A DNA stretch of 32,000 nt from Candidatus Lokiarchaeum ossiferum. Lineage in GTDB: Archaea; Asgardarchaeota; Lokiarchaeia; Sigyniarchaeales; Promethearchaeaceae. This document shows positions 15,426 to 32,000 of this stretch, one piece after another. The stretch covers positions 5,670,001 to 5,702,000 of the forward strand of contig CP104013.1 in assembly GCA_025839675.1 (NCBI GenBank), given 5' to 3'. Made by a program: the position numbers and the translations under genes. The stretch's first letter is position 1. Each line of letters opens with the position of its first letter. The notes beneath the pieces were generated by a model, which worked only from the letters and a program-made list of their open reading frames with translations, ran no database searches and had not been told where the DNA came from.

Positions 15426-15978
15426 CTACTGTTTCATTATTTTTTTTCTTTGTTCTTGCGTTAGAATATCAGTATGCGATCCAAATCTGTACCACGCTGT
15501 TGTCTTTTTTAAAGAAAATGCTTTGGAAAAAGAAACATCTCGAGAAACTTCATATACGGTATTTTTTTCACGAAAAATTTTCAAAATTAGTATATGCTTT
15601 TCTTTCAAGTTTAATATTTTAGTTTTGTCTTCTAAAAAAAGAAAATTTACCCCAATTCTTCTTTCAATCTTCAATTCTTTAATATCCTCAAATGTTTGAG
15701 CTAATGGTAAAAAATTTGGGATTGGCTCTACGTAGTTTTTAAGAAGATTGGTTATGGTATCTTCAATTTGACCAACATTGCTGATAGAAAAAAACTGATA
15801 TGTATTTTCTTCTTTCTCTTCAACACCAAAAACAAGATATCCTTCATTTTGATCGCTTGAGTATAAGCCGATTGAATTTAAGATCGCGATTACATCTTTG
15901 ATAAATTCGTACTTATATTTATCAATTTTGAGATCAAGTGTTTTTTTGTAATCAAGGAGGTATTGATTATGAATTTAC
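15426..15978 (-). pseudogene. AlbA_2/Schlafen-like domain protein lacking a start codon
   Basis: The frame is open for ~184 codons: IHNQYLLDYKKTLDLKIDKYKYEFIKDVIAILNSIGLYSSDQNEGYLVFGVEEKEE...WYRFGSHTDILTQEQ. No ATG/GTG/TTG occurs until TTG 15674. The sequence parallels the N-terminal domain of the 583-aa protein at 24007-25758 (VDFKEF..FLRDVVSFANTDETGIILYGV..FWIRGSGSKKQITFNE). Confidence 0.6.
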
Positions 15979-16564: not shown

Positions 16565-16804
16565 CCCTAAATCATTAATCAATAATAGTTCTTTTAATTG
16601 ATTGAACAAAGAACTTAGGGGGATTTTAGAAGATCCATACAAATCCAAAATATCTTTACTATATCTCCTAGTTATAATTTGGATAATAATTGTCACTTCT
16701 TATGATAGTAATTGAGATGATCATCCAACAAATTAGTGTATTAAAAAGAAATAAAGTCGATAAGGGAAAAAAAGGATAGTAAACAAAAAAAATTGGTATT
16801 ATCA

Positions 16805-17275
16805 ATGCAAATACAAGAGACAAAACTTTGGAATCATTTAAATGATGGAAGGACAAAATTGGAGAAGATTCTTGCTATTAATATTTTACAAATAACTCCC
16901 AGTTTGTTGAAAAGATCAAAACTAATAAGGGATACCTTTCCGCATTTCACATTGCACGATGAAAATCATCTTATCAAAGTAATATATATTATGGGAATTT
17001 TGCTTGAGGATCATATTCTAAATGAGCTGAATCCAATTGAAATATATCTTCTAATTTTAAGTGCTCTGTTTCATGATCAAGGGATGGTTGTAGAAGATCA
17101 AGAAAAACACTCAATTCAGAATTCGATTGAGTATATTAATTCAGTAGAAGTTTGGAAAGAAAATAATCATAACTTAAAATTATCAGAAATTGAAAGAGAT
17201 TATAAATTTTTAATAGAATATCAAAAAGATATCTCTCCAAAAATTGAAGATGTCTTATATTTTTCACATTTTTAG
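16805..17275 (+). CDS. HD-domain phosphohydrolase, N-terminal half (ends at in-frame TAG)
   Basis: FPHFTLHDENHLIKV and LSALFHDQGMVV provide the H...HD motifs. The ORF stops at TAG 17273-17275, in the same frame as the next ORF. The track start TTG 16793 is possible; the first ATG is at 16805. Confidence 0.65.
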   Translation: MQIQETKLWNHLNDGRTKLEKILAINILQITPSLLKRSKLIRDTFPHFTLHDENHLIKVIYIMGILLEDHILNELNPIEIYLLILSALFHDQGMVVEDQEKHSIQNSIEYINSVEVWKENNHNLKLSEIERDYKFLIEYQKDISPKIEDVLYFSHF

Positions 17276-17329: not shown

Positions 17330-19870
17330 ATGATCTTAAAAGATCCATTTTACATTATTGAAGGTTGTGATATTAGGGCACTATTAGCGAAAATTTGTAT
17401 TTCTCATTCAAAAAAGGCCTCCGATTTAAACAATCAAAAAGATTATCCATATGATATTCAAATTGGGCATTTCCAAATCAATTCAGTTTTTATTGGAATT
17501 CTTCTTCGATTAGCTGATATCTTAGATTTTGATAGAGATAGGACACCTAAAATTATTTGGGATACAATTTCAATTTCTGATACAAAATCCATCAAAGAAT
17601 GGAAAAAACATCTTTCAGTAAATGGATGGAGTATCAATTCTGAAAGGGTTAGGTATTCTTGTGAATGTGACCATCCAGACTATCAAAAAGCAGTATATGA
17701 ATTGATGGAATGGATTCGAATCGAACTTGTCCAATGTAATATTCTTATTCAAAATTTCCCTGCGGATTATTCAAAATATCAATTCAAAATCCCACTCCAA
17801 GTAGATAATTGTAGAATATTTCCAAAAAATGACTCATATATTTATCATGATCTAGTATTTGAAATTAATAAGAAGAAAATAATCGATCTATTTCTAACCG
17901 ACCAATTGTATAAAGATCCTTCTCTGTGCATCCGAGAACTGATCCAAAACTCCTTAGATGCTTTGGAAATGAGAAGGTTATTTTTCTTAAGTGAATCTGG
18001 AGCTATTTGGGAACAGGGGAAAATTGAACTTAAACATTATTTTGATGATGACGGAAATGAAATTCTTGAATGCGAAGATAATGGAATTGGTATGGATGAA
18101 AATGAAATACTAAACTATTTAGTAAAAATTGGTCAAGGATATTATCAATCCTATGAATTCTCAAAAATAAACCATATTTTCAAGAAAAAAGGGTTTGAAT
18201 TCAATCCAATTGCTCAATTTGGAATCGGTTTTCTTGCATGTTTTATGATTGGCAATAGGATTCAAATAACTACTCGAAAATCATATGGAAGCAATAATGC
18301 GCAGATTCCATTGCAAGTCGAAATTGATGGGATAATAAACAGAATTGTAATAAGGAAATTATCAGAAGATATTGAAATTGGTACAAAAGTAAAAATATTT
18401 TGCAAGCAAAAACAACTTTATTACCATCCAAGCTTAGAAATAATCAAATTATGTACTACAATTCTCAGATATGTACGAGGAACTAATTTTTGGATTTATT
18501 CTGAGTGTTTTATTCCAGAAATTGCTAAAAAAGTTTCACTTCCACCAGGAATAAAATATCATAAAACTCATCTTCAAAAAGCAAATATCGAGCAAATTAA
18601 AATCATCGAGCAAGACTTTTGTGAAATAAATTCGAATCTGGAAGGAAAAGTATATGAAACCTTTTTAATTAATGGAGAAAACAATTTTGTTTTAGAAAAT
18701 GAAGAAGCAAAGTGGATTTTTGATGACAAAGGTCCTATATTGGTCGATTCTGAAAATGAAAAAAAAATACTTTATAAATTTTACGACCATAACGTGCTGA
18801 TGCAGAATAAAATTCTGTGTTTTGATGGAATTTTAGTTGCTGGTTCTCCAGATGGATATTCGTATAGAGGAAAAGCTATTTTCCCTCCTAGTACTAGTAG
18901 CTGTATCATGAATATTAAAAATTCACTGAAAACACAATTAACCCCTAGGAGATTTATTGATGAAAATGCAATAATCAGCAAAAATCCACGATTACAGTAC
19001 ATAATTGAATGTCATAATATCGCTGAAGGTTTAATATGGGAAAAAATAATTAGAAATGCCACTTCTCGACCTAAAATGCTTTGGAAACTTGTATTTATCT
19101 ATGGATTTGATTTAAAAAATATTAGAAAAGAAATTTTATGGGAATATCTCTATATTCCAGCTTTGGATGATAAAAATAAATTAAATTGGATAAAATTGAA
19201 AGAAATTATTATAGAAGGCATAGAAAATGTATCTGTTAGCAAAGGAAATCACTATGTTCGCTTTTACTCGTCCAAATATAAGTATGATTTTCCACATAAG
19301 AAAGAGTACTATTCAGTAATTTCAAATGATCCTAATAATACTCTTCTATGGCTTATAATGGGTTTTATGAAGCTATCGTATGATGTAAGTGGATTTATAT
19401 ATAGAATGACAGATGATTTTGATAAAAAGAACATTATTAGCATATCAGATTCCTGTTATAGAAGTAAAACAAAATTGCAAATGTTTTTCCCTCGCTCAAT
19501 AATCCTTTTTTGTAGTGAATGGCCTATCGAAACTGATTTTAGATCCTCTCTTGCAAATGTTTCTCACCAATTAATTAAGAAGATCCAAGAAATTCGTTAT
19601 AAAGAGAATTTAACAATAGGAGAAAAGATCGTTGTTTCTCTTGTAGAATTTTTGACAAGAACACAAGTTATAAAGATCCTGAAGTTGAATCACCCAAAAC
19701 TTACAGTTGAGTTCAAAGAAATAGGCATTCAGTTCAAAATTTTCGAAGAATCCCTAAGTCCGGAATTTAAACCTCCATACAAAATATTAACACGGGAATG
19801 CACAGTTTTGGAAATCACACAAGAACATTTCTATTCCTGGGCAGAGTTGAAAAATGAAGAAATGGTCTGA
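17330..19870 (+). CDS. HD-domain C-terminal half fused to GHKL (Hsp90/sacsin/MORC-like) ATPase and ~500-aa unknown C-terminal region
   Basis: The 18 in-frame codons between the TAG and ATG 17330 read NFIRIRHGERVKKVIWDE. Then LLRLADILDFDRDRTP completes the HD fold. The GHKL motifs follow: N-box CIRELIQNSLDAL, G1 CEDNGIGMDENE and G2 IAQFGIGFLACFMIG. Confidence 0.7.
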   Translation: MILKDPFYIIEGCDIRALLAKICISHSKKASDLNNQKDYPYDIQIGHFQINSVFIGILLRLADILDFDRDRTPKIIWDTISISDTKSIKEWKKHLSVNGWSINSERVRYSCECDHPDYQKAVYELMEWIRIELVQCNILIQNFPADYSKYQFKIPLQVDNCRIFPKNDSYIYHDLVFEINKKKIIDLFLTDQLYKDPSLCIRELIQNSLDALEMRRLFFLSESGAIWEQGKIELKHYFDDDGNEILECEDNGIGMDENEILNYLVKIGQGYYQSYEFSKINHIFKKKGFEFNPIAQFGIGFLACFMIGNRIQITTRKSYGSNNAQIPLQVEIDGIINRIVIRKLSEDIEIGTKVKIFCKQKQLYYHPSLEIIKLCTTILRYVRGTNFWIYSECFIPEIAKKVSLPPGIKYHKTHLQKANIEQIKIIEQDFCEINSNLEGKVYETFLINGENNFVLENEEAKWIFDDKGPILVDSENEKKILYKFYDHNVLMQNKILCFDGILVAGSPDGYSYRGKAIFPPSTSSCIMNIKNSLKTQLTPRRFIDENAIISKNPRLQYIIECHNIAEGLIWEKIIRNATSRPKMLWKLVFIYGFDLKNIRKEILWEYLYIPALDDKNKLNWIKLKEIIIEGIENVSVSKGNHYVRFYSSKYKYDFPHKKEYYSVISNDPNNTLLWLIMGFMKLSYDVSGFIYRMTDDFDKKNIISISDSCYRSKTKLQMFFPRSIILFCSEWPIETDFRSSLANVSHQLIKKIQEIRYKENLTIGEKIVVSLVEFLTRTQVIKILKLNHPKLTVEFKEIGIQFKIFEESLSPEFKPPYKILTRECTVLEITQEHFYSWAELKNEEMV

Positions 19871-21819: not shown

Positions 21820-23316
21820 TTATTTCCAAAAAGGAAATAAATCAAAAATAAAATGGAATATTTCTACTATCCGTCCTTCATCAGTTTTATATTTTGAAAA
21901 GTAATATTTTTTAGATGAACCTTGGATATTAAATTCTTCAAAAGTTCCAGGTATACTTAATCTATGATTTTCAATTAGTCTATTCTTATATGTTGTATCT
22001 ATCGAATTCAAATTTTCATTAATCATATAAAGGATACCTATTTTATCATTAAATCCCATGTTTCCAATTAATTCTTCAATCGGAGGATATTCTTTGAAGT
22101 TTCTAGGCCATATTTTAAATTCAAAAGAGATTCTAAACATATTATGAGATGTTTTAATATTTAGATCACATTTCGTTTTTTTTATAGTTTCTTTTTCTCT
22201 CTCAGAAATCCAATAATTTGAATGGAATTGATCTAAGAAATAATCTCTAAAATTCTCTTCCTTATATTGCTTATTGATGATTATTTCTTGCATTGTGGAA
22301 TTAAATTCAATCATGTTTTGAATGTCAATAGTTTTTCCAATTAATTTATCAATAAATGAAAGAGGTATATCTAATGAATAAGAATTAAAACTTGTAATGT
22401 ATTCTTTTTCTATTATTTCATTTCCATAAATACTTGAGAAGAATTCAGTCATAGCATACCTAGGTATATTATTCCAATATGATCCAGTATATTTAAATGT
22501 ATTATGTGCTTTTTTTGCAGCTGCTACAATAGATTGGTATAAAATTTTGTCATCAATGGAAGAATAAAGAGAATAACCCAAGGATTGAAATTTTGTCAGT
22601 TTATCTAAATTTCTTAGAATTTCTTGTCTTAAATTTTGATTTTTAGAAATTAGTGCTTTTTCAATATCTGAATTATTTTGAGAAATATTCAATATAAAAA
22701 TCCAAAGAGATATTGCATTTGGGTAAATCTGAATAATTTTTTTTTTTTTTAAGAAATTTGATAATCTTTTTATTGAAATGTTCAAACAATTTCTTGCAGT
22801 TTTACGATAAAAAGCATTTTCCATTGTATTTTTAAGATAATAACCAAAAAATTCTATTGAGAGACAATAACCATAACATACTAACGATCCTAAATATTGA
22901 TCAGTGAATCTTGAACCGAGGTTACTTAAATATCGATGAATTCTTGTAAAAAAAGTTTTTAAAATTGAAATATCAGATGGAACATTGAATAATTCCATAG
23001 TTTTAAACAAAATTAACATTTGTGCAATTAAATTATTACTATTCTTGAAATCATCAATGCTTTTTTGGTTTAATAGATATCCATAATAATAAGATGATAT
23101 ATTTTGACCAAAAAGACTTCCTAAATGATACAACCAATTTTGAATGCTCTTATGGTTTGGATCTTTTTTATAGAAATCATTTAAGAACAATAAAAAATTT
23201 CCAGAATCAACAAAATATTGCTTTACATGCTTCAATGGTTCTTTCTTTGATTCTTCATACTTTCTTAATCGATCGGAAAAATCCTTTATCCATAAATCCT
23301 TATAAATTGTGTCCAT
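21820..23316 (-). CDS. hypothetical 498-aa protein, partner of the minimal nucleotidyltransferase
   Basis: Long ORF whose ATG lies 17 nt inside the 3' end of the MNT gene. The N-terminal two thirds are helical and aromatic-rich, and the C-terminal region looks beta-rich. It contains an A14 coding tract (KKKK). No recognised domain. Confidence 0.6.
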   Translation of the reverse strand: MDTIYKDLWIKDFSDRLRKYEESKKEPLKHVKQYFVDSGNFLLFLNDFYKKDPNHKSIQNWLYHLGSLFGQNISSYYYGYLLNQKSIDDFKNSNNLIAQMLILFKTMELFNVPSDISILKTFFTRIHRYLSNLGSRFTDQYLGSLVCYGYCLSIEFFGYYLKNTMENAFYRKTARNCLNISIKRLSNFLKKKKIIQIYPNAISLWIFILNISQNNSDIEKALISKNQNLRQEILRNLDKLTKFQSLGYSLYSSIDDKILYQSIVAAAKKAHNTFKYTGSYWNNIPRYAMTEFFSSIYGNEIIEKEYITSFNSYSLDIPLSFIDKLIGKTIDIQNMIEFNSTMQEIIINKQYKEENFRDYFLDQFHSNYWISEREKETIKKTKCDLNIKTSHNMFRISFEFKIWPRNFKEYPPIEELIGNMGFNDKIGILYMINENLNSIDTTYKNRLIENHRLSIPGTFEEFNIQGSSKKYYFSKYKTDEGRIVEIFHFIFDLFPFWK

Positions 23317-23626
23317 TCCTAATTCTTCCTGAAATTATTCTATAACCTTTCTTTAAAGACTCATTTAGTTTACTTTTTTTCTGTATATTCGAATAAAATT
23401 CTTCTTCAGTTAAGCAAATTACATCTACATTTGATATATTCTTATTTTTAAAGATATTTTGGATCATTTTAATACGATCAAAAAATATTATTCTAATGAA
23501 GTAATTACTAACAACGATTAAATCAATATCTAAATTGGGATCAAGGAACTTTTTATTTACTTGAGATCCATGTAAAATAATCAATATTGGTTTCAATATA
23601 TTAAGATTTTCCAGAATTTTATTCAT
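23300..23626 (-). CDS. minimal nucleotidyltransferase (MNT, Pol-beta superfamily)
   Basis: 108 aa. LIILHGSQVNKKFLDPNLDIDLIVVS provides the G-S and D-x-D motifs, and NVDVICLTEEEF supplies the third acidic residue. Confidence 0.7.
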   Translation of the reverse strand: MNKILENLNILKPILIILHGSQVNKKFLDPNLDIDLIVVSNYFIRIIFFDRIKMIQNIFKNKNISNVDVICLTEEEFYSNIQKKSKLNESLKKGYRIISGRIRNGHNL

Positions 23627-23841: not shown

Positions 23842-23958
23842 ATGTTGGGCAAAGATAAAAAATGGGCCAATTCTGGAGAATATTGTCATCATTGTGGTCA
23901 ATCACACCATAGCTCTATTGAAAAATCGGTATGTTATCCTTGTTTCAAAAAAAAATAG
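23842..23958 (+). CDS. 38-aa zinc-ribbon micro-protein candidate (below the ORF-track size cut-off)
   Basis: ATG 23842 gives MLGKDKKWANSGEYCHHCGQSHHSSIEKSVCYPCFKKK-TAG, with C-x2-C-x13-C-x2-C spacing. The stretch is locally GC-richer than its surroundings. It overlaps the 60-aa track ORF 23828-24010 in another frame. Confidence 0.3.
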   Translation: MLGKDKKWANSGEYCHHCGQSHHSSIEKSVCYPCFKKK

Positions 23959-24006: not shown

Positions 24007-25758
24007 TTAGAAGCCTGGGGTAGTAAAAAGTGGGAGACTTATGAGATGGCCTCTTTCTTTAAAAATTTGCTTAGTCATTAATGAATTATTATCTAAAGTT
24101 TCTTTTTTATTTAACTTATGATCTATTCTTTTTTTTGAACTTGAATCATAGATTTCTGAAATCCATCTTCCTTCAATTTTTGATAATTTAAGTGAATAAT
24201 GATTTATCTTCAGATAAGATATACCTTCAATAATTTTTAGGGGAAATAACTTCTGAAATTCATAAACATTATTTTCATACATGAATGAAATATGACTCCA
24301 TCTTTCCTTCTCAATGGAATCGCAAAACTGATGCTGAAAAGATTCAATCCATTCCTTCTCATTTTTGTGAGCCATTTCTGGACAAATTTGATCCCAAAGT
24401 TGGTTTAAAACTCCAATACGATGTAAAGACATTCCTTGAAACATTTTTTTATATAAATCTGGTTGTTCTGATTTAATATGATCCAATTTACGACCAATAT
24501 CATTCCAACTTTCGAATTTGAATTGTTCAAATATATTTTCTGTGATATCAACCCGCATTTCAACAATTTTGTCTTTATCATTCATTTGGAGATAATATTC
24601 ACCAGATCCAGTCTCAATACACAATGTAACTCCTCTAATGGCAAACATTTCTAAAATTTTATCATCTTGAAAGATTTGTTGGAGAATTTCTTGAAAATTT
24701 TGATTCCGTCTGTAAGCTTCGCTTATTTCATCAAAGTACAAGTAAAATCTCTCTAATTGGATCATTTCTTGAGTTTTTATAGAAAATTGGTTGTTGATAT
24801 AATTACATAACTCAAATTTAAACTGTAAATAATAATCTAAGATGAATTTTCCCTCCGCGTGAATTGTATTCTTTCCGATACTCCCATTTACTTTTGAGAT
24901 CTTTTCTGGATTATAGGATATACTTATATCAAAGTTTTTTTCATTTTCATTTTGAGAATAAAAAAGAAATTTAATTAAGGTTCGAGCTGATGTGAAGTAT
25001 CCAAATGTATTAGTTCCACTTGATTTACCTTCTTTTTCATCAATAGTTGTAGTTAAGTTTAAAAAATCTTGCAAATTAGATTTATGATTTCTAATAAATT
25101 CTGTTAATATTTTTAGTTGATTTGGATAATTTGGCCCCAAATCTTCATTTTTGGTAATGAAAGCTAAATCCATCAACTTCATGACTTGATTATATGCTCT
25201 AAATATTTCATTATTACTTTGTGTTTCATCATTCTGCAACTTTTTAATTTGTAGTAATTCATTGAAGGTTATTTGTTTCTTACTTCCGGATCCTCTAATC
25301 CAAAACTCATGTAAATCAACAGTTTTATTATGACATAGTTCCTTTTTATGATAAAGGGAGTATATTTTGTTTTTTGGTGTTTTTATTCTTACGATCGTAA
25401 TGAACCGAGAATTTTGAAAATAAATAGGTTGAACTTCAATATTATTTATTATGTTTGGTGAAATTCTTTCATTTAGGATATTTACAAGATGGGTTTGCAG
25501 CTTATCTCCATTAAATGAATCTTCAGTTTTCATTCCTACTATTTTTTTCTCCTTATCAGTAACTCCATAAAGAATGATTCCAGTCTCATCAGTATTTGCG
25601 AAGGAAACAACATCTCTTAGAAATTCATAAGAAAATGCATCATTAGCACTCAAAAATTCTTTGAAATCCACGCGATGGGATTCATTTCCAATATCATTAA
25701 GGAAATTTTCAATATCATCAATCTTAATTCTTTCAATCTCTTTGCTAAACAAGGTCAT
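24007..25758 (-). CDS. AlbA_2/Schlafen-like N-terminal domain protein with ~400-aa unknown C-terminal region
   Basis: 583 aa. NESHRVDFKEFLSANDAFSYEFLRDVVSFANTDETGIILYGVTDKEKKIVGMKT...ITIVRIKTPKNKIYSLY...FWIRGSGSKKQITFNELLQI matches the AlbA_2 (PF04326-type) pattern. It starts 20 nt after the OLD gene's stop. Confidence 0.65.
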   Translation of the reverse strand: MTLFSKEIERIKIDDIENFLNDIGNESHRVDFKEFLSANDAFSYEFLRDVVSFANTDETGIILYGVTDKEKKIVGMKTEDSFNGDKLQTHLVNILNERISPNIINNIEVQPIYFQNSRFITIVRIKTPKNKIYSLYHKKELCHNKTVDLHEFWIRGSGSKKQITFNELLQIKKLQNDETQSNNEIFRAYNQVMKLMDLAFITKNEDLGPNYPNQLKILTEFIRNHKSNLQDFLNLTTTIDEKEGKSSGTNTFGYFTSARTLIKFLFYSQNENEKNFDISISYNPEKISKVNGSIGKNTIHAEGKFILDYYLQFKFELCNYINNQFSIKTQEMIQLERFYLYFDEISEAYRRNQNFQEILQQIFQDDKILEMFAIRGVTLCIETGSGEYYLQMNDKDKIVEMRVDITENIFEQFKFESWNDIGRKLDHIKSEQPDLYKKMFQGMSLHRIGVLNQLWDQICPEMAHKNEKEWIESFQHQFCDSIEKERWSHISFMYENNVYEFQKLFPLKIIEGISYLKINHYSLKLSKIEGRWISEIYDSSSKKRIDHKLNKKETLDNNSLMTKQIFKERGHLISLPLFTTPGF

Positions 25759-25778
25759 TTTTAGTTTATTCCTCTTTT

Positions 25779-28001
25779 TTAGTTGAGATTTAATTTTTGG
25801 GATATTTTGTCCAGTAATTTCTCTTTAACAAATCCTTTTTCCTGAATAATGCGATAGTAATTATCTTTTTCATATATGAAGCCAAATTTTTTTGAACATT
25901 CAGCAAAAACTCTGAGTTTCAATTCCTTCCCAGGAAATTCTTTCCATTCTTCCCCTTTTTTGATAATTAATTCGATTTCTTTAGCATATGTTGCAAATCT
26001 CTCTTTGTAGAATTGTTTATCCAACGAAATATGTTTATGTTTTGTGATAAAATCTTCAATGGTTTTCAAAAAGGAATCTACACGAGTTTCTTGACTTCTT
26101 GTTTCTCCCTCTTTGTTTTCCACAAACGTTTTCGATATTTTTTTTTTGTCTTTTTCACTGAAAACCTTTGGAAATTCGTTGAAAAAGAATTTTATTTGCT
26201 TCTTTCTGATCATCTGTTCATCAACAGCTGATTTGATAATTTGTTTTATTAATTCCAAAGTAGGTTCGATTACTAAGGGGTTACTTGAAGATTTTATCAT
26301 TTCTAAGAGAATTTCCGGATTCAGATACAAATTTTCAATTTCTCGAACCGGGAGAAGAAGAATCTTTTCTTGAATTTCTACTGCTCTATTCTTAAGGATC
26401 TCTGTATTTCCTTCATCATTATCGAGTATAATTAAAAATTTGAAGTTTTTATTGGTGAAATGTTGTATCAGTTTTGCATTTGCCCAATAATGTACATCTC
26501 GTTTACCTCCCAATTGCTGTAAGACTATTCGATTATCTTCCAATAACCCTGGGATGGCATTCTTGAAGAATTCAATATCATCCTTTCCTTCTACAAGTAT
26601 CATTCCGTTATTCATTAGATAATCTGATGGTTTAATGCCAAGATCTTGAAAGAGAATGTCTAAGTTTTCTTTGCTATCATTGAACACTTGAGTCACTTTA
26701 TCAACTCGTTTCACACGATGAATACTCCAGTCCTCCTCTGAATTGTCGATAAAATAGGGTGAATGGGTTGTGATTAGGACTTGGTATTTGCCAAGATTTT
26801 CTTTGATTATTGATAAAAGAATCTTTTGGAGTTGTGGATGGATGAAAAGTTCCGGTTCTTCAATCAGTAATATTCCATCTTCTTCAGTTTCCAAAATAAA
26901 GGCCAAAATAATAACTAGTTGCTGAATTCCTTTTCCAAGTTTGTCAAAAGTAAGTTTGTAATCAAGCTTCTTTTCTTTAAGATAAGGTATCGTAATTGGA
27001 AAATCTGAAATATGTCTATTAAGCTCTGAATTGTATTTAGGATCAAACAATGCATAATCGGGTTTTACTAAAAAATTTTGATTGATTTCTAGGAGACTTG
27101 GATAAAATCTAAACAAATAATTACATAATTTATCTAATTTTGACCTTTGATTAGTGTCATATTCTAAAATCAAAGTTGGAATTTTATTACCGGTTGCGTC
27201 TAAAGCCTTGATATCATTTGTCTCCTTTATTTTAGAAAAATGATTAAAAAATCTGTCTTCTTTAATACAACGCATTTTAGAATGAAAATTTACAATGGGT
27301 TTTAAGAAAAAATAAAGAAAAGGTTCCACTTTCAATATTTCAAAATAATTTTTATCATCTAACATATTTTTTTGAGAATTTGGAAAGCTTGTATGAAATA
27401 TATTTTCAGGTATATATCTCCATTCTTGATGTTTTTCAATTGTTTTTGCAACATGAGTTGGATTACTCAGGTCTAGAATTCTGAAACTGTAATTTGACCC
27501 CAAATTTTTTTTTTCACCAAATGAGTGAGAAAACCACTCATTTTGAAAGGAAACCTTCTTGATAAAAACTCTATTATTAGATCCTGGCATTAAAATTAAT
27601 TCGAATATAATATTTGCAAATGCTTCCTCGATTGTTAAGCTCTCTTTTTCATCATATTGCCTATTTTTATAAATTTTAAAAGATTCTGGATCTAAAATAT
27701 AGTCCTTCGCTCTCGATCTAAAGATGTGTTTAGAATTCTTCACAAAAAACTCCCTTAATTTCAATTTTTCAAACTTAAAATTAATGATGATTTTTGCCAA
27801 AGCTGGATTTTCATCAAACATGATAAATTTATGATTAAGGTTCTGGTTTGGTCTTATTTTTTCAAGAATTTTAAAAAAATTACTCTTACCAGCGTTATTT
27901 GGACCAATTATTACCCCTAATTCTCCAATATTCTCAAAAACTTGATGATCAAAACTGAGGAGGTTGAAGATTTCTACTCGATGCAAACGAGAAATTGTCA
28001 T
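25779..28001 (-). CDS. OLD-family ATP-dependent nuclease (ABC/AAA_15-type ATPase + Toprim)
   Basis: 740 aa. ATPase motifs are Walker A GPNNAGKS, signature-like KLGKGIQQLVIIL, Walker B ILLIEEPELFIHPQLQ and H-loop VLITTHSPYF. The Toprim core has its Glu in GMILVEGKDDIEFF and its DxD in FLIILDNDEG. A ~150-aa C-terminal extension follows. Confidence 0.8.
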   Translation of the reverse strand: MTISRLHRVEIFNLLSFDHQVFENIGELGVIIGPNNAGKSNFFKILEKIRPNQNLNHKFIMFDENPALAKIIINFKFEKLKLREFFVKNSKHIFRSRAKDYILDPESFKIYKNRQYDEKESLTIEEAFANIIFELILMPGSNNRVFIKKVSFQNEWFSHSFGEKKNLGSNYSFRILDLSNPTHVAKTIEKHQEWRYIPENIFHTSFPNSQKNMLDDKNYFEILKVEPFLYFFLKPIVNFHSKMRCIKEDRFFNHFSKIKETNDIKALDATGNKIPTLILEYDTNQRSKLDKLCNYLFRFYPSLLEINQNFLVKPDYALFDPKYNSELNRHISDFPITIPYLKEKKLDYKLTFDKLGKGIQQLVIILAFILETEEDGILLIEEPELFIHPQLQKILLSIIKENLGKYQVLITTHSPYFIDNSEEDWSIHRVKRVDKVTQVFNDSKENLDILFQDLGIKPSDYLMNNGMILVEGKDDIEFFKNAIPGLLEDNRIVLQQLGGKRDVHYWANAKLIQHFTNKNFKFLIILDNDEGNTEILKNRAVEIQEKILLLPVREIENLYLNPEILLEMIKSSSNPLVIEPTLELIKQIIKSAVDEQMIRKKQIKFFFNEFPKVFSEKDKKKISKTFVENKEGETRSQETRVDSFLKTIEDFITKHKHISLDKQFYKERFATYAKEIELIIKKGEEWKEFPGKELKLRVFAECSKKFGFIYEKDNYYRIIQEKGFVKEKLLDKISQKLNLN

Positions 28002-28211
28002 ATAATATTACTCTTGGACAAAGGTGTAGTTAAATTTTATCTAAAAATCCAATCGCCATATTTAACTTTTAAAAAAAAGGGTTAATCTTCTTGAGATAGA
28101 TTCAATGAAAACATAAAAAAGTTGAGACACAATAAATCTAATGAAGATCTAAGGTTTTTCAAATCATGCATGGCAAAACAGTTTTATTGGATAAATAATC
28201 AATCTTAAACT

Positions 28212-29503: not shown

Positions 29504-30034
29504 GTGTTTTACATTCCAAAAGATGAGTTGAACCAAGAAAAAGTTGATTACTTAAAAACCGTTTTTCAGCACAATCGCAGTATGATCCAACTGGCAGACA
29601 ATAAAGCAAGTATCCTAATCCGGATTATATCTGTCCTTCTTCCCATTATGTTCGGGGTCGATTCCTATCTTACCACCATCGTGAAAGTTCAAAGTCTGAC
29701 AATTTTGCAATATTCAAGTTTCATTTTATGCATTGTCCTCTTGATCATTTCCTTTTATATGTCCACAGCCGTTCTCATGGCACGCTTTGAGCAATATGAT
29801 GACCATATCTTCTTTTTAAATATTATTAAGGAAAAACTCGAAGAATATCAGGATACCATTGAAGAAATGGATGATTACGTTATTTTTGAAGATTATATCA
29901 AGGAAAATTATGCTATTGCTGGGATTAATGAGAAAAAATATGCCAGTTATAAATATTCCTTCTGGTTTTTGAATATAGGGGTTCTTCTATTGGTCATTCG
30001 TTATATTGTGTTATTTTCTTTTCTTGTTTTTTAA
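29504..30034 (+). CDS. Pycsar-effector-like (PycTM/DUF5706-like) membrane protein
   Basis: 176 aa from a GTG start. An N-terminal cytosolic helix ends in MIQLADNKASILIRIISVLLPIMFG, the aD-x-KA motif entering TM1 that I associate with this family. Two or three further TM helices follow. It is convergent with a class III cyclase 21 nt away. The family assignment is from memory, not a search. Confidence 0.5.
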   Translation: MFYIPKDELNQEKVDYLKTVFQHNRSMIQLADNKASILIRIISVLLPIMFGVDSYLTTIVKVQSLTILQYSSFILCIVLLIISFYMSTAVLMARFEQYDDHIFFLNIIKEKLEEYQDTIEEMDDYVIFEDYIKENYAIAGINEKKYASYKYSFWFLNIGVLLLVIRYIVLFSFLVF

Positions 30035-30055: not shown

Positions 30056-30769
30056 TTATCTATATCTACCTTGAAATTCATATATTTTATATGGTGATTT
30101 TTGACCAAAATGCGATTTTACACCCTTTAAATAATTACAATAAGGAAATGGTGGAATTATTATCTTGGAGTTATTTTTTCTTTTCGCAGAAAGTAGATGA
30201 AAAATATCTGAACCAATGCAAATGGTTGAGTTCTGATCAAACGTTGCGTGTTTTTTTCCTATTGATTCTAATCGTTTTGCTGTAATTGCAGGGCGACCAA
30301 CGATGATCAATTGGGGTTTTGTCTTCAAACCTATTTTTTCAACTTTAATTAGTCCGAAATCAATTCCTATTCTTATCTTAAGGTCTGGAAATTTATGCTC
30401 TTTTTTCAGAACAATTAATAATTGAGACATTTCTAAGGCAGCATTCAAGGCATTTTCACAAGCTAATTCATCTGGTTGATTTTTATCACAGAAACTTATC
30501 ATTGCACCATCCCCTGTATATTTGTCAACAATTCCTTTCTTTTCATTCACAATATGAAAAACCATATGTAGAAATGGACTTACATATCTTATGAATTCAT
30601 TCTCTTCTAACTTTGATGAATTAGCAATATCCAAAACCAAAATTGCTGCTTTTAGTGTTCTTCTTTCTCCAATGGCCATTTCATCAATATTTGGAAAATG
30701 ATTACTATTCTTTTTACCTGGGTTCTTTCTTTTGTTTAAAAATTTATTTAAAACTTGTTTATCTACCAC
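30056..30769 (-). CDS. class III nucleotidyl cyclase catalytic-domain protein (stand-alone)
   Basis: 237 aa. AAILVLDIANSSKL carries metal Asp 1 and VDKYTGDGAMISF carries metal Asp 2. IRIGIDFGLIKVEKIG and IVGRPAITAKRLESIG follow the Guanylate_cyc (PF00211-type) motif order. The GTG start is preceded by GGGGGA 10 nt upstream. Confidence 0.7.
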   Translation of the reverse strand: MVDKQVLNKFLNKRKNPGKKNSNHFPNIDEMAIGERRTLKAAILVLDIANSSKLEENEFIRYVSPFLHMVFHIVNEKKGIVDKYTGDGAMISFCDKNQPDELACENALNAALEMSQLLIVLKKEHKFPDLKIRIGIDFGLIKVEKIGLKTKPQLIIVGRPAITAKRLESIGKKHATFDQNSTICIGSDIFHLLSAKRKNNSKIIIPPFPYCNYLKGVKSHFGQKSPYKIYEFQGRYR

Positions 30770-30872: not shown

Positions 30873-32000
30873 CTATATTTGTATTAGGTAAATACATTTT
30901 TTTGTTCGGGTTAGAGAAGTAAAACAGATATTATCTTCTTCTGATTTTAATCTGGTTTTTTTTTTTGACGGATTATAATCATAATAAAATACTATATCAA
31001 ATTCTAATCCTTTTCCTTTATGATGTGTCATAACTCGAATTTTATTGGAGTCGTGTGGCAAAATTTGGTCTATATTTATGGCAATTCGCAAATGATTAAG
31101 TAAACTGCTTAATAAAGCCCTGCTATCGTCAGATTCATATTTATTAAAAACAATAAAATTCTGTACCTCCACTGATATTTTTTTTTTAAACTCGGAAGAA
31201 AAAAAATTATCATCGTAATTGAAAATGAAATTAATCAATTTTATTATATTAGAAGTACGTTGAAAAATAAACTTATTTAAATAATCCTGATAATCATTGG
31301 GTAAATCTACAAGCAGTATGGGATTGTGGTTAAGATAAAATTGTAATGAAAAGCAAAATTTATCGAATTCATTAATTTGATCTTCACTAATATCTAATTC
31401 AGATATAGGTATTCCATATTTAATGAGTTCTTTTTTAATTTTCAATACAATTGAATTAGTCCTCGCAAAAATAACGATTGATTCTGCTTTTATTCCCTCC
31501 TTTGTCCAAGAAAGTATTTCATTCTTGATGAATTCTATTTTTTTTTGTAAATTATTTGGATTTATTTCTTTTTGTATAATTTTTGCATCATTTTTATTTC
31601 TGAAATCAACATTTTTAATTAATCCCATGGATAAAGTTTCATTTGTATACTCTATGATATTTTTAGGATTTCGAAAATTTACTTCAAGTTTCAAAAGATT
31701 CGCATTGGTTTTTCTAATAAATTTATCAAAAATTGAAGGAAGACTACCAATCCACTTGTAAATAGATTGATCTTCATCCCCCACAACCATAAGATTTTTT
31801 GTTTGTTGAGCTCTCCATAATAACAAAATGAAATTTAACCGGTAATAGGTGCAATCTTGAAATTCATCTACAAGAATAATTGGAAACTTGATATTCAATA
31901 TATAACGAATATTTTTATATTTTTTAATCATCCAAATTGCACATAACTCCATCAATTCAAATGGTAAAAGCCCATTTTTTATATAATATTTTAAAACATC
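30873..32000 (-). CDS. UvrD/Rep-like SF1 helicase, N terminus outside the window
   Basis: The frame is open to nt 32000. Motifs seen are motif II PIILVDEFQD, III VVGDEDQSIYKWIG, IV VNFRNPKNII, V VMTHHKGKGLEFDIVF and VI CFTSLTRTKKCIYL. On the coding strand a T9 run follows the stop directly. Confidence 0.8.
   Translation of the reverse strand, partial: DVLKYYIKNGLLPFELMELCAIWMIKKYKNIRYILNIKFPIILVDEFQDCTYYRLNFILLLWRAQQTKNLMVVGDEDQSIYKWIGSLPSIFDKFIRKTNANLLKLEVNFRNPKNIIEYTNETLSMGLIKNVDFRNKNDAKIIQKEINPNNLQKKIEFIKNEILSWTKEGIKAESIVIFARTNSIVLKIKKELIKYGIPISELDISEDQINEFDKFCFSLQFYLNHNPILLVDLPNDYQDYLNKFIFQRTSNIIKLINFIFNYDDNFFSSEFKKKISVEVQNFIVFNKYESDDSRALLSSLLNHLRIAINIDQILPHDSNKIRVMTHHKGKGLEFDIVFYYDYNPSKKKTRLKSEEDNICFTSLTRTKKCIYLIQI

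Follow-up and report, generated by a model that had tools for sequence, protein, structure and literature searches.

A candidate two-nuclease operon joining an OLD-family ATPase-Toprim gene and a Schlafen gene in a Lokiarchaeal defence island

Introduction

Modules made of an ATP-binding cassette (ABC) ATPase and a nuclease, i.e., OLD, PARIS, Gabija, Septu, and PrrC, are among the most widespread designs of prokaryotic immunity. The OLD-type ABC domain is viewed as a sensor or conformational switch for the nuclease effector, and the effectors known to be coupled to it are Toprim, HNH, HEPN, and Menshen modules, Schlafen not being listed among them (10.64898/2026.07.10.737580). Two of the Toprim proteins concerned, P2 OLD and AriB, cleave tRNA (10.64898/2026.07.10.737580; PMC12409363). 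The prokaryotic Schlafens (pSlfn), for their part, were shown in 2025-26 to be defence tRNases, described as one-protein systems in which a fused domain does the sensing, and their catalytic Ex4(E/D)xK site has been defined together with that of human SLFN11 (PMC13056530). Here, we analyse a stretch of 32,000 nucleotides (nt) of the cultured Asgard archaeon Candidatus Lokiarchaeum ossiferum (GCA_025839675.1, CP104013.1, positions 5,670,001-5,702,000), hereafter the window, in which a gene for a 740-amino-acid (aa) OLD-family ATPase-Toprim protein (gene 1) directly precedes a gene for a 583-aa Schlafen protein (gene 2). By exact-sequence match, these genes are NEF87_004846 and NEF87_004845, respectively.

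We give an even chance to the reading that gene 1 and gene 2 constitute one ABC-ATPase-controlled two-nuclease abortive-infection operon. The domain content, the intact catalytic residues, the operon-like layout, the island setting, and the recurrent fusion or adjacency of ATPase and Schlafen are directly established; the physical interaction of the two products, their co-regulation, their substrate, and the defence phenotype are what we infer.

Layout of the Two-Gene Unit

A preliminary description of the locus, made from the letters alone, had announced two long open reading frames (ORFs) of 740 and 583 aa on the same strand, and both exist just as described, on the minus strand (Table 1), in a window of about 28% GC. 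It had also reported a 20-nt gap with AGAGGA ahead of gene 2 and no T-run, and all three hold in the sequence: by direct reading, the spacer (AAAAAGAGGAATAAACTAAAA region) is 20 nt long, has AGAGGA inside, and is devoid of any T-run, and a run of nine T (T9) occurs only after gene 2, about 55 nt past its stop. This arrangement argues for a single transcription unit, of which the T9 run would be the terminator. The AT-rich region upstream of gene 1 is presumed to hold its promoter.

Table 1. Coordinates of the two-gene unit in the window and of the related fusion genes in other loci
Feature	Position	Strand	Evidence
Gene 1, 740-aa OLD-family ABC-ATPase/Toprim protein (NEF87_004846)	25779..28001	-	ORF, Pfam, PADLOC, AF2 model, Foldseek
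ABC ATPase domain, gene 1 residues 1-445	26667..28001	-	Walker A 33-40, signature 355-362, Walker B 377-389, H-loop 410-415; 17-sequence alignment
Toprim core, gene 1 residues ~466-560	26322..26606	-	E471, G499-K500, D527xD529, E554xE556-N557 as invariant columns
All-helical C-terminal domain, gene 1 residues ~580-740	25782..26264	-	AF2 model secondary structure; conserved W686, G691-K692
Intergenic spacer, 20 nt, with AGAGGA	25759..25778	-	Direct sequence reading
Gene 2, 583-aa prokaryotic Schlafen protein (NEF87_004845)	24007..25758	-	ORF, Pfam
Schlafen/AlbA_2 nuclease domain, gene 2 residues 26-163	25270..25683	-	Pfam; alignment with SLFN11
Catalytic motif E26-SHRV-D31-F-K33 of gene 2	25660-25683	-	Motif position
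Orphan C-terminal region, gene 2 residues 165-583, mostly helical; candidate sensor/docking domain	24010..25266	-	No family match
T9 run, candidate archaeal oligo-T terminator of the two-gene unit	23947..23955	-	Direct sequence reading
AT-rich 210-nt region between gene 1 and the divergent gene; presumed promoter region	28002..28211	.	Sequence; function inferred
ATPase-Schlafen fusion genes (proteins P0123-P0201)	L016:880-2784, L019:5974-7893, L020:4002-5918		

Gene 1, an OLD-Family ATPase-Toprim Protein

The ATPase and Toprim motifs quoted in the preliminary description are all present in gene 1, namely GPNNAGKS (residues 33-40), LGKGIQQL (355-362), ILLIEEPELFIHP (377-389), and ITTHSP (410-415), followed by ILVEGKDDIEFF (468-479) and LIILDNDEG (523-531) in the Toprim core. 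In an alignment of 17 homologues, the Walker A, ABC signature, Walker B, and H-loop are invariant, and so are the Toprim residues E471, G499-K500, D527/D529, and E554/E556/N557; the Toprim columns are likewise invariant in a second alignment (A2 beside A1), and both the tryptophan and the Gly-Lys pair of the C-terminal helical domain (Table 1) are conserved. Pfam recognises the ATPase part as AAA_21 (4e-22) and AAA_15 (2.5e-20) and the Toprim part weakly, as DUF3226 (E 0.034), and the Toprim of a homologous fragment in locus L014 matches the OLD-like_TOPRIM family at 3.2e-5. The best PADLOC model is fused AriAB (1e-26, residues 350-708 only), followed by AriA (3e-23) and Old (3.6e-21), the GajA models scoring about 1e-13.

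Structure prediction points the same way. An AlphaFold2 (AF2) model built from the 17-homologue alignment has a mean predicted local distance difference test score (pLDDT) of 77, and its top Foldseek matches are the OLD protein of retron Eco8, the Thermus scotoductus OLD (6p74), and GajA (E 1e-16 to 3e-14), with TM-scores that are low against the solved OLD proteins (0.23-0.32), the domain orientation being different. A profile search of the PDB sequences agrees with these matches. Thus, from the invariant motifs, the model, and the structural and profile matches, gene 1 encodes a complete OLD-family ATPase-Toprim protein that is apparently active and has an additional helical C-terminal domain of about 160 residues. 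Its assignment as an OLD-family nuclease, which the preliminary description had made from the motifs, is borne out by ATPase motifs, Toprim residues, and predicted fold, and an ATP-dependent nuclease activity is predicted.

Gene 2, a Schlafen Head with an Orphan Tail

In gene 2, residues 26-163 match SLFN_AlbA_2 (Pfam PF04326) at 2e-16, with 61 bits for a cut-off of 25.3, in agreement with the AlbA_2/Schlafen-like N-terminus noticed beforehand. The Ex4DxK site of this domain is intact (E26-SHRV-D31-F-K33) and aligns to ESQSIEFK of SLFN11. The remainder of the protein, about 400 aa that the preliminary description could not place, has resisted assignment as well: the 419-residue tail has no match in Pfam, NCBIfam, or PADLOC, nothing credible appears when it is run alone against Pfam at E<=1, and an exhaustive HMMER search against 1.84 billion cluster representatives retrieves only the gene 2 protein. 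No helicase or P-loop family was found in residues 165-583 with Pfam, NCBIfam, and PADLOC, and no PADLOC model (2023) matches the 583-aa protein. Its single-sequence AF2 model has a pLDDT of 34, too poor for fold comparison. A word-indexed search with the full gene 2 gave one relative, P0002, which shares the head domain only (42% identity).

By its Slfn/AlbA_2 domain, its Ex4DxK motif, its fused extra region, and its site in a defence island, gene 2 is a prokaryotic Schlafen, for which tRNA cleavage and a role in defence are predicted. The 419-aa extra region would be its sensor.

Recurrent Linkage of OLD-Type ATPases and Schlafens in Asgard Archaea

A Pfam scan of 69 neighbour ORFs found AlbA_2 in three of them, each directly 3' of the ATPase gene. 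Around 80 bacterial OLD loci hold two AlbA_2 genes only, loosely placed. We made a rough estimate after seeing the data: three Slfn genes stand within two downstream slots among the ~13 Asgard loci that have usable downstream sequence, AlbA_2 amounts to at most ~0.5-1% per gene in the loci compared, and the chance of at least three downstream Slfn genes in such a set, whose loci are not fully independent, is well under 1%. A looser OLD/Schlafen neighbourhood outside archaea was seen in Paenibacillus sp. LjRoot153 (L023:4275-9527), where a HerA-like ATPase, an OLD protein (AAA_21 and a weak OLD Toprim), a 166-aa ORF, and a 309-aa AlbA_2 protein are encoded on one strand.

The two domains are also found in one polypeptide. 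Loci L016, L019, and L020 encode proteins of ~635 aa in which the ATPase is fused to SLFN_AlbA_2 at ~470-608, i.e., at the site occupied by Toprim in gene 1. A search with the L019 fusion gave at least 68 full-length clusters (90% identity) with AAA_15, AAA_21, and AlbA_2, down to 33% identity. All named clusters belong to Promethearchaeota/Lokiarchaeia, their Slfn domains keep the motif E..lWDFK, and their next relatives are ATPase-Toprim proteins of ~800 aa. The same family occurs in a split form: L017:1021-2940 (JAGXOA010000138.1) consists of an ATPase-only gene (465 aa, devoid of Toprim) and a Slfn-only gene (173 aa) joined by a TAAATG junction, and the Slfn product reaches 226 bits against the fusion-family Slfn profile, which makes the pair a split member. 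This layout is PARIS-like, with a Schlafen in L017 where PARIS has AriB. In L105:4001-5884, the reading frame of a family gene is interrupted, which leaves an ORF for a 481-aa ATPase and a Slfn remnant of 118 aa; the gene is either a pseudogene or was misassembled.

A Schlafen gene stands beside the ATPase gene in two other loci. In L014:2936-5546 (Loki_b31), the OLD gene, of clade A, is cut short next to an insertion sequence element, and after it comes the gene for a 462-aa Slfn protein whose motif is intact. In L107:811-4305, the order is an ATPase-only gene, a 266-aa gene with no known function that overlaps its end, and a gene for a 397-aa Slfn protein. We considered the 266-aa protein as a split Toprim and rejected this, the comparison being negative. 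The Slfn heads of L107 and L014 are 63% identical and their tails are unrelated, which suggests, on sequence comparison, domain swapping in a sensor or specificity region. As for the surroundings of the fusion genes, one lies directly after a phage-type integrase (L109:6545-9938) and another adjoins SduA_C (Shedu-like) and HNH genes (L108:8001-14765), settings that fit carriage by mobile elements or defence islands. In a rough neighbour-joining tree of the ATPase domains, gene 1 falls in clade A, whose members all have Toprim and often leucine-rich repeats (LRR), and clade B is made up of the Slfn fusions with Toprim forms interspersed among them.

A Proposed Mechanism

If both genes are expressed as a single transcription unit of the Lokiarchaeal defence island, the ABC ATPase of gene 1 would work as a sensor or a conformational switch, the role that such ATPases have in P2 OLD, PARIS, Gabija, and retron-OLD, with the Toprim nuclease as the effector attached in cis. 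Gene 2 would supply a second effector in trans, namely the Schlafen RNase head with its intact catalytic site, for which the ATPase-only and Slfn-only pair of L017 is the precedent. The fast-evolving tail of ~420 residues could dock on the ATPase and/or set the specificity of the trigger. Upon infection, the nucleases would be released or activated and would cut host RNA, most likely tRNA, so that the infection would be aborted. By analogy, both nucleases of the pair may target tRNA. The preliminary description had proposed a combination of DNA- and RNA-targeting activities; this is not a safe inference, P2 OLD and AriB being tRNases (10.64898/2026.07.10.737580; PMC12409363), and since P2 OLD, AriB, and the Schlafens all cut tRNA, we regard it as doubtful.

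More broadly, and only tentatively, Asgard archaea could harbour a hitherto undescribed class of immune modules that place a Schlafen RNase under the control of an OLD-like ABC ATPase, the RNase being fused in place of Toprim, or split off into a two-gene pair, or, as in the window, added in trans to an ATPase-Toprim protein. If true, an Asgard-specific radiation of OLD-type ATPases with a Schlafen in cis or in trans would bring a new effector pairing, and its fused, split, and adjacent variants would form a natural set for studying how an ATPase gates a nuclease. For the locus studied here, the practical gain is narrower, namely a two-gene candidate open to testing in an Asgard archaeon that is in culture.

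One Module or Two Neighbours

Several observations weigh against a joint operon. The exact pair is not conserved among the homologous loci examined: P0004, the closest homologue of gene 1 (62% identity), has no Schlafen gene downstream, and tblastn with gene 2 detected no deleted or decayed remnant of a partner in its locus; the loci of P0005, P0006, and P0007 have other neighbours and no Schlafen gene; none of the 11 metagenomic near-clade loci has an AlbA_2 neighbour; and P0002, the nearest relative of gene 2, lies among transporter and metabolic genes with no ATPase neighbour. Co-occurrence of homologues, on which the preliminary description had made its proposal depend, thus largely fails for the exact pair. 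Moreover, the Slfn head of gene 2 scores 19.5 bits against the fusion-family Slfn profile, compared with 61 bits against Pfam AlbA_2, and it is 25-27% identical to the heads of L014 and L107. Hence, the window pair did not descend from the fusion family and is an independent juxtaposition. Finally, the fully intact Toprim of gene 1 leads one to expect self-sufficiency, as for Class 1 OLD, and a prokaryotic Schlafen that carries a fused variable domain can provide defence on its own (PMC13056530).

These points are at the heart of the most serious alternative, to which we grant a somewhat less than even chance, namely that two independent single-gene systems stand side by side, perhaps co-transcribed: a stand-alone, Class-1-like OLD and a stand-alone Schlafen carrying its own sensor at the C-terminus. 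Class 1 OLD genes are indeed stand-alone (PMC12796447), RorSlfn5 and EcoSlfn7 each confer defence from one gene and 17% of the pSlfns have unannotated fused domains (PMC13056530), nucleases of the OLD and the Schlafen kind have both been described as frequent additional effectors of BREX loci (PMC12839542), the closest OLD and the closest Slfn relatives are both unpaired, and the island is densely filled with unrelated systems. What speaks against mere neighbourhood is the 20-nt spacing with a T-run only after gene 2, the position of the AlbA_2 genes in the slot directly 3' of the ATPase rather than at random, and a recurrent and otherwise unexplained ATPase-Slfn linkage: it is the fusion family, the split pair, and the adjacent Slfn genes of L014 and L107 that argue for a functional link between ATPase and Schlafen. 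The proposal of an OLD-Schlafen immunity module is therefore upheld in part: it draws support from the fusions and split pairs of related Asgard ATPases, and it is weakened by the lack of conservation of the exact pair and by the fact that pSlfns are a described single-gene defence family (PMC13056530).

The habits of clade A were also counted in favour of a two-gene module, for this clade carries accessory LRR modules both in cis and in trans. Many of its OLD proteins, from Thor- and Lokiarchaeota, have an N-terminal LRR region of ~530 aa for a total of ~1270 aa (P0008-P0017; L013:4116-7922, L095, L098, L102), and in L012:438-2126 the LRR region has a gene of its own, which overlaps the start of the OLD gene; these proteins look like LRR-sensor OLD nucleases. 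The neighbours with no known function that accompany clade members (286 aa in L007, 308 aa in L008, 270 aa in L013, 266 aa in L107, 366 aa in L020) have no significant similarity to each other or to gene 2. Scans of viral contigs with both genes found no relative of either.

A misread Gabija, with gene 2 as a divergent form of the GajB helicase, or a misread PARIS, with gene 1 as a fused AriAB next to an irrelevant gene 2, is suggested by the PADLOC scores of gene 1, i.e., fused AriAB as the best model and GajA models at about 1e-13, but we hold it to be the least probable explanation of all. The AriAB match spans only part of the protein and the Old and AriA scores are similar to it, DUF4435, the AriB family, gives no Pfam match in gene 1 at E<=1, and gene 2 has no helicase or P-loop signal. 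The preliminary description had itself raised the case of a UvrD-type helicase, which would make the locus an ordinary Gabija: gene 2 is not UvrD, and a genuine GajA and GajB lie about 3 kb away, partly past the window end, which together exclude a Gabija identity of the pair. It is also very unlikely that the locus has a role outside defence, in the cell cycle or chromosome biology like the archaeal OLD protein Cran1, or that it is decaying and non-functional. An archaeal OLD class with a housekeeping role does exist (PMC12796447), the tail of gene 2 is an orphan, and a degraded AlbA_2 copy is present in the same island. Against this, the distribution is patchy, the neighbours vary, and the setting is one of defence islands or mobile elements, unlike the vertically inherited Cran1 clade; every catalytic residue is in place in the three enzymatic domains, and the two ORFs are long and free of interruptions, in a genome of 28% GC.

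The Defence-Island Setting

Around the pair, Pfam identifies Gabija, a Pycsar-like cyclase and PycTM, HD-CE/HATPase, DUF4365, HEPN_Apea, and an MNT-like gene. The Gabija is canonical, with a GajA of 596 aa bearing OLD-like_TOPRIM and a GajB (UvrD) of 569 aa; it lies at 30873-31955 (-) of the window and past its end (L001:1399-4886), the window holding part of GajB only. One island thus contains two different OLD-family genes, gene 1 and GajA. The second, degraded AlbA_2 gene that the preliminary description had reported elsewhere in the island is real (15429-15974 (-), Pfam 1.8e-9): it has 182 stop-free codons, no start codon, and a stop three codons upstream, and N replaces the first catalytic Glu (NQYLLDYK).

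The PycTM effector (29504-30034 (+)) and the nucleotide cyclase (30056-30769 (-)) are 21 nt apart and convergent, hence not one operon, and their Pfam matches are modest (1.2e-4 and 1.1e-7). The HD-CE domain is in two parts, a 160-aa ORF (16793-17275 (+)) that covers profile positions 1-65 and an 846-aa HD-CE + HATPase_c_3 ORF (17330-19870 (+)) that covers positions 131-261; a frameshift or a split of the gene could explain this. Immediately after the OLD-Slfn unit on the minus strand, an NTP_transf_2 nucleotidyltransferase of 108 aa (23300-23626 (-)) overlaps by 17 nt with a 498-aa protein without family match (21820-23316 (-)), and the two may be an MNT-type toxin-antitoxin-like pair.

Comparison with Known Systems

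Both gene families are of known kinds. The OLD-Schlafen pairing and the Asgard fusion and split family appear to be undescribed in the texts searched, to which the pSlfn supplement and the ABC-ATPase classification of Krishnan et al. 2020 do not belong. Among single-polypeptide systems, gene 1 is close to the Class 1 OLD proteins (P2 Old, Thermus scotoductus OLD, Vibrio cholerae OLD), with which it shares an ABC ATPase and a Toprim in one chain, the lack of a helicase or retron partner, a variable neighbourhood, and sequence and fold matches to 6p74. It differs from them by its greater length (740 aa) with the extra helical C-terminal domain of ~160 aa, by its Asgard clade, often with LRR modules, and by the Schlafen gene 20 nt downstream. 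The retron-associated Class 3 OLD differs in its partner: no reverse transcriptase was found among the Pfam-annotated neighbours within ~8 kb of the pair, the non-coding RNA (msr/msd) not having been searched.

As to two-gene systems, PARIS (the ABC ATPase AriA and the Toprim tRNase AriB, including fused AriAB) resembles the locus in that an OLD-like ABC ATPase controls a nuclease from a two-gene operon or a fusion. In contrast to PARIS, the ATPase of gene 1 already has a Toprim in cis, the partner in trans combines a Schlafen-fold RNase with an orphan tail of 420 aa and is not a DUF4435 Toprim, and the ATPase clade is Asgard-specific, while the PARIS-type classes 3 and 4 are reported from bacteria only (PMC12796447). 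Gabija (the Class 2 OLD GajA and the UvrD helicase GajB) likewise begins with an OLD-family gene to which another gene is tightly linked, but gene 2 is not a helicase, and the real Gabija adjoins. PrrC and RloC (ABC-type ATPase and HEPN anticodon nuclease) and Septu (the ABC ATPase PtuA and HNH) are comparable to the Asgard ATPase-Slfn fusions in that an ABC ATPase switch is joined to a non-Toprim nuclease; the Asgard effector has, however, a Schlafen fold, and in the window this Schlafen is a separate gene added to a Toprim. With respect to the fusion family itself, the window pair stands apart by the Slfn score of gene 2 (19.5 bits, vs 226 bits for L017) and by the place of gene 1 in clade A and not B.

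On the Schlafen side, gene 2 is like the pSlfns RorSlfn5 and EcoSlfn7 in its N-terminal Slfn nuclease with Ex4(E/D)xK, its fused variable domain, and its defence-island site, and it fits the class described as 17% with unannotated fused domains (PMC13056530). It differs in that RorSlfn5 and EcoSlfn7 were characterised as single-gene systems and in that its tail is without any homologue; the main text of that study, as distinct from the 55 domain architectures of its supplement, makes no mention of an ATPase partner or fusion (PMC13056530). The eukaryotic SLFN11/13/14 and SLFN-pAgo share with the locus the aligned nuclease motif and the association of a Schlafen with an ATPase, namely the superfamily 1 (SF1) helicase of SLFN11 or the GHKL ATPase of SLFN-pAgo. 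In the window, however, the ATPase is of the ABC/OLD type and encoded by a separate gene, the Slfn domain of gene 2 is single-lobed where the eukaryotic one is two-lobed, and no SF1 helicase of the kind found in the eukaryotic group III proteins follows it (residues 165-583). If the linkage proposed here is true, ATPase-linked Schlafens would exist in the nearest archaeal relatives of eukaryotes, and the Schlafens of eukaryotes likewise unite a nuclease and an ATPase.

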